Origin: Somniosus microcephalus
Lineage: Eukaryota
Reading direction: 5' to 3'
DNA length: 64,000 bases
Assembly (NCBI GenBank): GCA_052327205.1
Contig: CM126224.1
Span: 19,096,001-19,160,000, forward strand
The translations under genes and the position numbers were made by a program. The notes beneath the pieces were generated by a model. That model made no database searches. It was not told the origin of the DNA and saw only the letters and a list, made by a program, of their open reading frames with translations. Below are positions 1-5,061 of the stretch, one piece after another; position 1 is the stretch's first letter, and each line of letters opens with the position of its first letter.

Positions 1-3000
1 TGTTGAGGAAGTACACATTGCGGTCGGAGGAGGGGAGAGGCCCTTTAAAATCGACGCTCAGGCGTTCGAAAGGGCGAGTGGCTTTTATCAAGTGGGCTCT
101 GTCTGGTCTATAAAAGTGCGGTTTGCACTCAGCGCAGACTTGGCAGTTCTTGGTCATGGTCCTGACCTCCTCCATGGAGTAAGGCAGGTTGCGGGCCTTG
201 ATGAAGTGGAAGAACCTGGTGACCCCCGGGTGGCAGAGGTCATTGTGGAGGGCCCTCAGCCTATCGATCTGCACGCTGGCGCAGGTGCCACGCGATAGGG
301 CATCTGGGGGTTCATTGAGCTTCCCAGGCCGGTACAAGATCTCGTAATTGTAGGTGGAAAGTTCGATTCTCCACCTCAAGATCTTGTCATTTTTGATTTT
401 GCCCCTCTGCTTGTTGTTGAACATAAAAGCAACTGAACGTTGGTCAGTGAGCAGGGTAAATCGTTTTCCGGCCAGGTAGTGCCTCCAATGACGCACAGCC
501 TCCACAATAGCCTGGGCCTCCTTCTCGACCGCGGAGTGTCTGGTCTCCGGGCCCTGGAGGGTTCGTGAGAAGAATGCCACAGGTCTCCCCGCCTGATTAA
601 GGGTGGCGGCCAGAGCGAAGTCGGACGCATCGCTTTCCACCTGGAAGGGGATGGATTCGTCCACTGCGTGCATGGTGGCTTTGGCAATGTCCTCCTTGAT
701 ACGGTGGAAGGCCGAGCGGGCCTCTGCCATCAGGGGAAAAGAGGTGGATTTGATCAGCGGACGGGCTTTGTCTGCATAGTAGGGGACCCACTGGGCGTAG
801 TAGGAAAAAAACCCTAGGCACCTCTTCAGAGCTTTTAGGCAGTGGGGCAGTGGGAGTTCCATAAGGGGACGCATCCGGTCCGGGTCGGGACCGATGACCC
901 CGTGTTCCACAACACAGCCAAGGATGGCGAGGCGGTCTGTGCGGAATATGCACTTCTTGTTATATGTCAGGTTCAGGAGTTGGGCGGTGCGGAGGAATTT
1001 CTCGAGTTTTGCGTCATGGTCCTGCAAGTCATGGCCGCAGATGGTCACATTGTCTAGGTAAGGGAAAGTGGCCTGCAGCGCGTTTGATCGACCATCCAGT
1101 CCATCTCCCTTTGGAAGACGGAGACCCCGTTGGTAACGCCAAAAGGAACCCTGAGGAAGTGATAGAGGTAGCCGTTTGCCTCAAAAGCAGTATACTGGCG
1201 GTCTTCGGGGCGGATGGGGAGCTGGTGGTACGCTGATTTCAGGTCAATGGTCGAAAAGACGCGGTACTGCGCGATCTGGTTGACCATGTCAGCTATGCGG
1301 GGGAGTGGGTAGGCGTCCAGCAGGGTGTAGCGGTTTATTGTTTGGCTGTAGTCGATGACCAGGCGTTGTTTCTCGCCGGTCTTAACGACCACAACCTGGG
1401 CTCGCCAGGGGCTGGAGCTGCCCTCAATAATCCCCTCCTTCAGGAGCCGCTCCACTTCGGTTTTGATGAAAACCCTGTCCCCGGCACTGTATCGCCTGCT
1501 CTTTGTGGCGATGGGCTTAGAGTCGGGGGTGAGGTTAGCAAACAGTGGGGGGGGGGGGGGGGGGGGGGTGGGACTCAGTGTGGAGAGGTTGCATCTGGTG
1601 CGCGGCGGGCAATTTGGAGGCTGCTGGCTGCGGACTGTGAGTGGGGGGAGGGGGCCACCGTACGCCATCGTAACGCTTTTGAGGTGGCACTGGAAATCCA
1701 ACCCCAGTAGAACGGCAGCGCAAAGTTGGGGCAGGACCAGGAGTTTAAAATTATTGAACACAGTCCCATCTACTACTAGTGTCACCACGCAGTAGCCGCC
1801 AATGTCCGCTGACTGGGACTCGGCGGCCATAGAAATCTGCTGGTGCGCAGGCAGGACTGGGAGAGAGCAACGCCACACCGTGTCGGGGTGGATGAAGCTC
1901 TCTGTGCTCCCGGAGTCAAAAAGGCAGTTTATTGCATGGCCGTTTACCTTAACGTCCATTTTGGACCGAGCTAGTTGGTGCGGTCTCGTTTGGTCCAGCG
2001 TGACCGAGGCCAGCGTAGGGGTCGGTGTGTCGCTGCGGGTATCAGATGGGGGGGGGGGGGGGGTTTGCAGCCTGCTGCGTCCCGGCTGGTGTCCAAGATG
2101 GCGGCGTCCATGATTCCCATGTGACTGGAGTCGTCCAAGATGGCTGCTGCTGCGGTGGTTCGCACATGGCTGGGGAGGCCCAAGATGGTGGCCCGCACGC
2201 GGCGCTGTTGGGGGCCCAAGATGCCGGCTCGCACGGCCCACACGCGGCGCTGCTGGCGTTCGGGGTGGCTTTGGCCTTGCAGACGCTAGCGTAGTGTCCC
2301 TTTTTCCCGCAGCCCGAGCAGGTCGCATTCTTCGCCGGGCAGCGCGCTCTGGGGTGTTTGGCCTGGCCACAGAAGTAGCATTTCTGTCCTTGGGATACTG
2401 CTGTCTGGCTTTGGGACACTGCTGCGGTGGTTGAGCCGTTGTTGGGCTGTGGCTGGGGTGGCACGGTGCTATGGGGCTGTCCTACCGTGTCCCAGGTTGT
2501 CGTTCCCCGCGGCGTCCATGGTGCAGAGGAGTAGGCATCCATGCCCCGGTAGGCTGCGTCCAGCGTTAGTGCGATTTCGGAGGCTTTGTCGAGGGTGAGG
2601 TCACTCTGCTCCAGCAGTCGCTGTCGGGTGTAGTTGGACCTGTGGCCCGCTACGAAGGCATCCCGGATCAGTTCCTCCGTGTACTTAGTGGACGTTACCG
2701 CCTTACACCCACAGGCCCGGCCAAGCACGGACAGTGCTTGGAGGTATTCCTCAGTCGATTCCCCAGGTTGTTGCTTGCGACTCCCCAGGAGGTGCCTGGC
2801 GTAAACTTCGTTCACAGGGCACGTGTACTGGGTCTAGGAGCTGGAGGGCGGCTGTGTACGAGGTCGCATCCCGGATGACTGAGTACACTCGGTGGTTCAC
2901 CTTGGAGATCAGGACAGACAGTTTGTTCGCATCCGTTACGACCGCAGTGGAGGCAGTCAGGAATGTCTCGAAGCACATGAGCCAGTGAGCAAACTTGGTG

Positions 3001-3312
3001 GAAGCGTCCGCTTCCCGACTGTCCAGGTCCAGGCATGCTGGTGTGAGGATCTTCTCCATTATAAAAAATTTAGTTAATAAAATTGATGCGCCATCAATTA
3101 CTCAAAAGACTGAGGTTAAGCGAGTAACAACCAGGCTTTTATTAACTAAAGAATGAAGGTCTAGTCTCGAGTGGTCGACCCGTCCAGAATAATAAGGGAC
3201 TGGGAGGTAGTCACTTATATACCTGGAATAGTGGGAGGAGTCAGCCGAGGCATGTCCAGGCCTGTACCTAGTGGAATACACATACAGACAGGTATAACAG
3301 TGGTTTACCACA
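1..3312 (-). mobile_element. Young Ty3/Gypsy LTR retrotransposon (5' LTR, gag, PR, RT, RNase H, start of integrase; cut by window edge)
   Basis: Gag from ATG 3059 with two CCHC knuckles (CYFCGQAKHPRARC, CSGCGKKGHYASVC). Protease LFDSGS. RT IDY...LDAYPLP...DLKSAYHQ...PFG. RNase H SDASDFA...EKEAQA...TDQR. Integrase HNDLCHPG...CQVC and VDFKGP. Frameshifts near 2834, 2055 and 1085. Confidence 0.95.
3084..3312 (-). repeat. 5' LTR of the young Gypsy element (about 229 bp)
   Basis: TGT...TCA termini, TATATAA at about 3221-3215, AATAAA at about 3143-3138, and 24 nt between the LTR end and the gag ATG. The 3' LTR is outside the window, so the boundaries cannot be confirmed by comparison. Confidence 0.7.
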
Positions 3313-5061
3313 GATATACACGTCATACCCAGTGATGCCCTCATAACTGCCCGAGAATATGCTTTTATACTTGTTCAGCATTGTGTCGAATCGCTTCTTT
3401 GAAGCATCTACACTGAAGATGTTTTTCCAGTCTAGTTTTAACTTTCTCAACCAGTCTTTGCCCATGAGGGTTGGCCTGTTGTTTTAGCTTGCTACAATAA
3501 TGGGCAGCTTTACTGACTGGCCGTTGTGCTGAACTGTACATTCCATTTGTCCACGTGTCTGATTTCTCCGGAGTAGGTTTTTAACTCTATGGTACTCTTT
3601 GTAAGTGGTATTTGATTAAACTTACTCTCATGTGTGTCCTTACTCATGATCGAGCAGTCCACTGCTGTGTCAATACACATCAATATATTGGTCATTGATC
3701 AAAAGTTTTGATTGGAAGTCTCAAGACTGCAAGCGTTGCCACTAGTGGCATAGATACTGTAGATGTCTAGTTCTTCAATATCAGGTGGGTTCACGTCAAT
3801 ATTGTGAATTCCTCCCTTTTGTTGTCGCTGCTTTGCATTGCCACTAGAATGGTTCTTACTTCCTGCTTTCGATCTAGCTCTGCAAGCTGTTGAAATATGG
3901 CCTTGCTTCTGGCAGTGAAAACACTTCGCATTTTGGTATTGGCAGGACTGTGGTGGGTGATTCCATTGCAGCGATAACAATTCACTGAACTGCTCTCAGA
4001 TATGCTTTTGACCCAGTCTCTCAGCTTTAGGTTCGGCAGTGGCTTTGTGACTGTAGACCTCAGCTGCACTAGTCACTTGAGTTGGACGGAGCTCCCTAGC
4101 ATTCTTAGGCACCATCTCCATAGATAGGGTAGTTTTGCATGCAATGTTAACATTAGGTTAGGAGTGTTCAGTAATAATGGACCGTGTGCATTCATCCACT
4201 AGTCCACACACAAACTTCTCTCAACGCACGATCCAAAAATATGCTGAAGTTACAATGCAAAGATAGGTTAAGAGCTAGTGTACTCACTGATGGTTTCAGG
4301 TACCAAACTTATAGCTTCTCTGCTATCTCTAATGGCTTTGGGGCTGAAGCAGTCCTCGAGTTTATCTTCAAAAGACACTTCCTTCACTTTCCCTTGCACA
4401 AGTAGGTTTGTCAATATTCCGTAGACATCTGGCCCACTCGCCTTTAGAAAAATTGCTTTTTTACATTCACGAATTACTTTATTTTGAGCTTGAACATTCT
4501 TATCTGCACCTTCGGTCTCAATAATGTTACTGGCCGTAAAAAAAAACATCGCTATCCGCTCAATGCAAGCACTGAACGGTTCGCCAGCTCGGTCATACAT
4601 GCCGAGGCTTCCGATGAATCCCATTGGCGCAGCCACGATTGTCCCGATCCTGTTGAACAATGACTCAGCGCACTTCCCGTGAGAATCAACGCTGCCATTG
4701 CTGTGTATTCATACACCCGAAGGCGAAGCACGGACGACTCGGCATCAGCATGAACGGTAAAACATCGCAAAAAAAATTCAGTTTAGGTGTCACAAAGTCA
4801 CAGTAAACTTTTCCACTCGAAGGTTGAACACGGTCCTTCCATGCTCCCTAAAAATGGCTTTGGGATCCCATTCTCGTTACCAAAAATGCAATATGCAGGT
4901 AGAACAAATGAAGGAGACACAGGATGAGCTGCTTGACAAGGTGCTGGTTTACTAGGCCAGAGCAAACTGAGCATGTTCATACTAAACCATGGGACAAACA
5001 ATGTGATAATACATTACATACAGGTCCACAGGTGCCTATTCTTTAAATGCCTGTAGGAACA
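3313..5061 (-). mobile_element. Older degenerate Gypsy element (putative LTR about 4887-5061, PBS, gag-protease), interrupted by the young element
   Basis: Gag-like GFIGSLGMYD...CIERIAMFF, knuckles CYRC...H and CFHCQKQGHISTAC, protease IDTAVDCSIMS and MGKDWLRKLKLDW, with many frameshifts. Confidence 0.8.
4865..4882 (-). promoter_or_regulatory. Primer-binding site of the older Gypsy element, tRNA-Ser(GCT)-like
   Basis: Plus strand atcccattctcgttacca compared with the vertebrate tRNA-Ser(GCT) 3' end as recalled, atcccatcctcgtcgcca (3 transitions). It lies just inside a ...TGCA LTR end. Confidence 0.65.

Follow-up and report, generated by a model that had tools for sequence, protein, structure and literature searches.

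The window, 64,000 nucleotides of contig CM126224.1 from Somniosus microcephalus, opens on a reverse-strand long terminal repeat (LTR) element. Behind its 5' LTR, where a primer-binding site is expected, lies the exact complement of a 14-nt stretch of the LTR itself, here called the arm (Table 1). The family was assigned to Ty3/Gypsy by its two TG..CA LTRs, target duplication and PPT; its pol order was PR-RT-RH-IN, and its RT was nearest to that of Ty3 among solved structures. In the window copy gag-pol is frameshifted. This copy is nested inside another Gypsy element, which we take to be Mag-like.

The exact junction pattern of the family was found in 1,529 copies. Twenty whole copies were retrieved, 16 of which carried two correctly ordered LTRs. 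Of these 16, 14 were flanked by an exact 5-bp target duplication and one more by a duplication with a single mismatch. Most were approximately 4.45 kb in size, and the family was judged to be young because paired LTRs differed by only 0-5 substitutions. The LTR was 235 nt in most copies, compared to 229 nt in the window copy. The 3' LTRs and target duplications fixed the LTR at 3312-3084, and the CATCA terminus at 3084 given in the first-pass annotation of this DNA was upheld. The window copy, the last of the 16 two-LTR copies, had no matching target duplication; the host Gypsy remnant apparently resumes beyond its far side (3313-3317 and the 3' flank of locus L031). An apparent ATC bias in the target duplications was dropped, since the query flank had placed such copies at the top.

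Table 1. Features of the element and its 5' junction (window coordinates).
Feature	Position	Strand	Basis or remark
gag-pol: protease, RT with YLDN, RNase H, integrase	2..3059	-	extends past the window to the 3' LTR
Primer-binding site, without TGG	3069..3082	-	sequence
Single unpaired A between LTR end and primer site	3083	-	predicted first templated base
LTR-end hairpin, TTGATG/CATCAA	3083..3097	-	near subclade only
5' LTR, TG...CA	3084..3312	-	3' LTR comparison and target duplications
GGC, 3' strand of RCC/GGY-type helix	3090..3092	-	6 nt before the LTR end
Middle hairpin, TTACTC/GAGTAA	3098..3127	-	weakly kept, near subclade only
GCC, 5' strand of a short helix that stacks on the 3' end of the arm	3134..3136	-	RCC/GGY helix, 23 families
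Arm, 14 nt, exact complement of the primer site	3137..3150	-	sequence, aligned junctions
AATAAA within the arm	3138..3143	-	poly(A) signal by motif only
Predicted primer, approximately 55-nt 5' fragment	3137..3191	-	inferred; 14-nt arm preceded by an unpaired tail of approximately 41 nt
Predicted transcription start (TATA + 29-31)	3190..3192	-	inferred from over-copied site ends in related copies
TATA box, TATATAA	3215..3221	-	sequence; 85 nt from its first T down to the arm's 3' end
Degenerate gag/zinc-knuckle region of another Gypsy element	3313..4708	-	window copy nested inside

A check of the sequence bore out the earlier report that no TGG follows the LTR end and that 3082-3069 is instead perfectly complementary to 3150-3137, as well as the overlap of the arm with the candidate poly(A) signal (3143-3138). 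A complement of at least 13 was obtained in 0 of 20,000 shuffles of the 120 nt upstream, and the fold at the junction had a z score of -3.5. The TATA box had been placed approximately 65 nt above the arm; the distance was corrected to 71 nt, measured from its first T (3221) to the arm's 5' end. From this T to the arm's 3' end, the distance in related families was 82-85 nt.

Pairing and covariation across the lineage

A loose form of the junction pattern gave 34,300 matches in the source genome, compared to 795 in the control, with approximately 33,000 matching 5' junctions. A perfect complement of 10-37 bp was present in all 30 loci retrieved with this pattern. A metagenome scan yielded 80 loci; the 35 that reached the gag start were inspected and 16 representatives were taken. 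Together with 18 families from the source genome, these made up 34 representative families, 30 of which had a perfect complement of 11-19 bp between leader and LTR arm, starting at +2. The remaining four comprised two with an imperfect complement and two with an unsure LTR end. Named homologues came from a nematode, a butterfly, a ctenophore and a ray, and relatives were absent from the viral contig set searched. One relative, P0041, was labelled as a protein from a Lactococcus MAG and is probably host DNA in a bacterial bin.

Pairing was specific to each family. When leaders and LTRs of the 16 metagenome families were paired across families, the longest match in 240 pairings was 9 bp. RNAalifold analysis of 16 junctions returned an outer stem of 13 pairs with no broken cells, and two-sided changes, transversions included, were observed at seven of the 13 pairs. 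Single-position variants affected the arm only (19) or the site only (16), with no doubles. Copying of the primer into the site would account for the joint change of arm and site through transversions.

The first-pass annotation had described two inner hairpins that, together with the outer stem, formed a three-way junction without gaps. Both hairpin sequences were found at the positions given; the junction is not gap-free, as nine unpaired bases (3136-3128) stand between arm and middle hairpin. The TTACTC/GAGTAA helix appeared in neither the MFE nor the centroid structure of 3150-3069. Of the three stems, in which covariation had been put forward as a check, the outer one showed it. Across the 16 related junctions, 74% of the cells of the middle helix were paired; the LTR-end hairpin was mostly invariant, with a two-sided change at one of its six pairs. 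Among the 34 representative families, the LTR-end hairpin was missing outside the near subclade. RNAalifold kept the outer stem alone across the 16 junctions, and the three-way junction was rejected as the conserved fold.

A short RCC/GGY helix, which begins at the first base past the arm, is better supported as a conserved element than the three-way junction. Across 23 families that are partly non-independent, its Watson-Crick pairs numbered 82, where shuffles gave 53 on average and 69 at most. This helix and the LTR-end hairpin are mutually exclusive because they overlap. A distant member, L153, which grouped with the ctenophore protein in the tree, had a 12-bp arm whose end differs (ACAAAT, followed by TTCC), and no RCC helix.

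Over-copied primer sites

In some copies the primer site continues as the complement of the LTR sequence upstream of the arm; such sites are referred to as over-copied. The first example was a single locus whose complement greatly exceeded the arm in length. Pattern searches gave 85, 311, 44 and 64 matches in four family groups and none in each reversed control. A total of 235 over-copied copies were inspected, made up of all matches in three groups and 42 of the 311 in the second (family E). The 5' LTR was intact and the extension ended part-way in 122 copies; after the stop, many extensions resumed in internal sequence or returned to the leader. These 122 copies were reduced to 107 distinct junctions by removal of two rows (L231, a full palindrome with a duplication, and L374, at 182/195 nt) and by the collapse of 13 repeats.

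Almost all of the distinct junctions (97/107) stopped at least 27 nt below a TATA-like word, compared to 21 expected if ends were uniform; scoring L374 as a miss gave 97/108. The cut-off of at least 27 nt was picked after the first group had been seen, and the limit was repeated in the other three groups (27/30, 17/20 and 20/21). The 10 nt on one side of the edge held 31 ends and the 10 nt on the other side 2 (p = 7e-8, 107 distinct junctions), and the per-copy peak of ends lay 29-31 nt below the TATA-like box. Ten of the 107 junctions ended beyond the edge. Five ends at 55-56 had one microhomology in common. The window copy's own family had six over-copied sites among its 1,529 junctions and contributed a single copy (47 nt) to the informative class, the other examples being from sister families.

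The edge moved with the TATA spacing: spacings of 76, 84 and 95 nt corresponded to edges at 46-48, 54-56 and 63-68, respectively. An edge fixed by U5 length was ruled out, as a U5 of 51 went with an edge at 63-68 and a U5 of 58 with an edge at 54. Flipped products, whose end is a complete U3, served as a control for the sequence itself, with two rows short of the LTR end and one full-length row omitted. In these, 10 of 11 U3 junctions lay beyond 56 (p = 6e-7), and therefore the sequence there does not resist switching. With over-copies ending 29-31 nt below the TATA-like box, the transcription start, at approximately 3191 in the window copy, was likely where the template ended. Read most simply, the plus strand copied across a primer that would have the cap as its 5' end. 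Reverse transcriptases can add C in a cap-dependent manner; in a post hoc comparison, C followed 14 of 18 ends at the edge and 19 of 43 elsewhere (p = 0.016).

Two further products were observed. Palindromic mini-insertions of approximately 400-550 bp consisted of a whole LTR, one A, and an inverted arm plus U3 (L222, L223, L264, L270, L302, L349, L352, L360, L361, L366, L376, L378 and others); they bear perfect 5-bp target duplications, as from integration with two U3 ends and without internal genes. In L224, L235, L237 and L225 the U5 loop that links the arm to the primer site was inverted, as expected from switching between 13-14 bp inverted repeats.

A search for RNA data sets containing the family listed none. 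In two RNA runs that bear the species label of a DNA data set with the family, LTR depth was mixed-strand, reads did not pile up where the start is predicted, and none of the 12 loose read ends listed was a poly(A) end. Each run covered the gag region (window 2300-2930) with strongly sense-strand reads at 90-95% identity, which shows that the organism of origin transcribes a sister family.

A self-priming model and its rivals

The proposal of the first-pass annotation that this family may self-prime was strengthened by the clade-wide covariation and by primer sites over-copied from the LTR, and we consider self-priming very probable. The accompanying suggestion that the arm may not be the extreme 5' end also gained ground, as over-copying stopped approximately 40 nt above the arm. 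Two variants had been offered, internal cleavage of a 5' fragment and priming by the 3' R copy, and the former fits better than the latter. On the pattern of over-copied ends, minus-strand DNA is probably primed by a 5' fragment of the element's own RNA of approximately 55 nt, from about 3191 to 3137, of which the last 14 nt would pair with the site.

If the primer were instead the arm copy at the 3' end of the RNA, or at that of a second RNA packaged with it, and were freed by cleavage or trimming, this would directly predict the products (approximately 100 of 235) that traverse all of U3, including approximately 12 that enter the PPT. Seven products, also in favour of this reading, lie behind a 3' LTR. 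The donor was indistinguishable, as extensions differed from their own LTR by 1.1% and palindromes by 1.5%. Full-U3 products may, however, be over-represented through their restoration of an integrase end, and could also arise by fold-back of plus strong-stop DNA or by a jump through R homology. A 3'-end primer does not predict an edge at the transcription start unless plus strong-stop DNA re-anneals to the 5' arm of a second RNA, and we regard this source of the primer as unlikely.

A plain Tf1 mechanism, in which the main transcript begins at the arm, a 14-nt primer is cut and long primers stem from a minor upstream start, is distinctly improbable. More than 99% of family-A junctions have the arm-length site alone, as this mechanism would have it, and TCATT, presumably an initiator-like motif, lies 4 nt above the arm. 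However, in 20 of 30 loci the TATA box preceded the arm by 69-71 nt, with none at -30, and the over-copies peaked at TATA + 29-31. The genuine Tf1-type elements of the source genome, which carry a chromodomain, provided a calibration of the TATA-to-start spacing and show the Tf1 layout by contrast: in seven of ten, the 11-nt arm began 30-31 nt below TATTTAA. These chromodomain Gypsy elements (L488-L501) are abundant and have a Tf1/sushi-type self-primer, which makes two self-priming lineages in one genome.

The stem could also do no more than hide the poly(A) signal of the 5' LTR while another primer is used. A(A/T)TAAA falls inside 24 of the 30 perfect arms, and the pairing partner exists behind the 5' LTR only; yet six arms lack the hexamer (in two, it sits downstream in the loop), pairing always starts at +2, no alternative primer site was found, and the arm and its upstream sequence have been physically copied into the site. 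Poly(A) hiding as the sole function is highly improbable. Retroviruses can occlude the 5' poly(A) signal, as in HIV-1, where the polyA hairpin holds AAUAAA in a stem at the 5' end; in the present lineage, by contrast, the arm pairs with a primer site beyond the LTR, and arms devoid of the hexamer still form the stem. Priming by a tRNA or tRNA fragment, with the complementarity secondary, is barely credible: half-tRNA priming is known in some copia lineages (PMC6317226, in its accessible text), but TGG was absent from all 34 leaders and the site varies with each family's own arm.

Under the preferred reading, priming by the 5' fragment, the arm would anneal to the leader from +2. By analogy with Tf1, the element's own RNase H would then probably cut the RNA between 3137 and 3136, where the arm meets the RCC/GGY helix stacked on it. 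RT would extend the new 3' end by approximately 54 nt (3083-3136), and the first jump would go through the short segment that separates the arm from the poly(A) site. Plus-strand copying would normally be confined to the 13-15 paired bases, and arm and site would thereby stay matched; in rare cases the plus strand would copy the tail up to the cap and then jump at a microhomology. The copy may normally stop at 13-15 nt because the tail anneals to the new minus-strand DNA after the first jump and is then degraded. Where the arm has AATAAA, the pairing may have a second use in hiding the 5' poly(A) signal.

A broader statement, in our judgement evenly poised, is that this is a widespread animal Gypsy lineage, separate from the chromoviruses, in which self-priming evolved independently. 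Its primer would be a capped 5' fragment of 45-65 nt, the last 13-15 nt of which prime and also hide the 5' poly(A) signal; the junction of AAA with the RCC helix would set the cut, and a further step would trim or block the unpaired tail. The lineage, which combines some 33,000 junctions in one genome with relatives in many animals, suggests that a self-primer need not be the extreme 5' end of the RNA. The model specifies a testable start site, cut site and primer length, and over-copied primer sites offer a route to mapping the primers and starts of LTR elements from genome sequence alone.

Comparison with known systems

Self-priming has been demonstrated biochemically for Tf1 of fission yeast and predicted in a few other groups. 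The accessible text of PMC6317226 predicts it from complementarity between LTR and primer-binding site in the Tcn1 clade and in the plant TAR/Houba copia elements; these are other lineages in other hosts, and that text, as accessible, describes no long primer or over-copy mapping. Elements without a tRNA primer site include GalEa, with its Conserved Hairpin Site, the bivalve TRIMs and Dictyostelium Skipper (accessible text of PMC6934838 and PMC5006619). They differ from the present lineage in having an internal hairpin or a polypyrimidine tract, and Skipper has no complementary LTR stretch.

The layout reported here is not described in the accessible text of PMC3601003, PMC6934838, PMC6317226, PMC5341516, PMC7472051, PMC8220671, PMC5006619 or PMC13524379, and that of PMC13343379 held nothing relevant. 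It is unreported in the literature searched, a scope that excluded subscription papers, Repbase and GyDB, so that a prior description is possible. A search of the literature on the YLDN motif of RT found nothing relevant; many members, including the L042 ORF and its relatives, have YLDN, YMDN, YFDN or YVDN and not YxDD.

Placement of the RT in a phylogeny had also been proposed. A quick RT-RH tree of 43 rows, midpoint-rooted and built without named reference RTs, separated a 26-row clade from 11 chromodomain elements (SH-aLRT 100), which set the lineage apart from the chromodomain elements.

The lineage resembles Tf1 and Tf2 of Schizosaccharomyces pombe, Tj1, Tosmo, Tcry1 and the other Tf1/sushi chromoviruses in lacking a tRNA site and in its Gypsy pol order, and it shares with the Tf1/sushi group a primer site right behind the 5' LTR that pairs with LTR-derived RNA. 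In Tf1, the transcript's initial 11 bases pair and RNase H cuts between bases 11 and 12 (accessible text of PMC7175516 and PMC4600332). In contrast, the arm of this lineage is 13-15 nt long, lies approximately 40 nt inside the predicted transcript and usually covers AATAAA; the predicted primer is approximately 55 nt and the RT often has YLDN. The distance from arm to LTR end is 30-65 nt, whereas it is 163-172 nt in the chromoviruses of the source genome. The Tf1/sushi group is characterised by a chromodomain, a self-primer at the RNA 5' end and a three-duplex fold (accessible text of bioRxiv 10.1101/2022.12.06.519325 and PMC4600332). None of 39 proteins of the lineage had a chromodomain. Judged indirectly, from an arm 71 nt below the TATA box and over-copies that reach approximately 41 nt above the arm, the self-primer probably does not lie at the very 5' end of the mRNA. 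The three-duplex pretzel was not seen; the central duplex and the short RCC/GGY helix are what is kept. The lineage works like Tf1 but, by two tested features, chromodomain and tree position, is not a member of the Tf1/sushi group.
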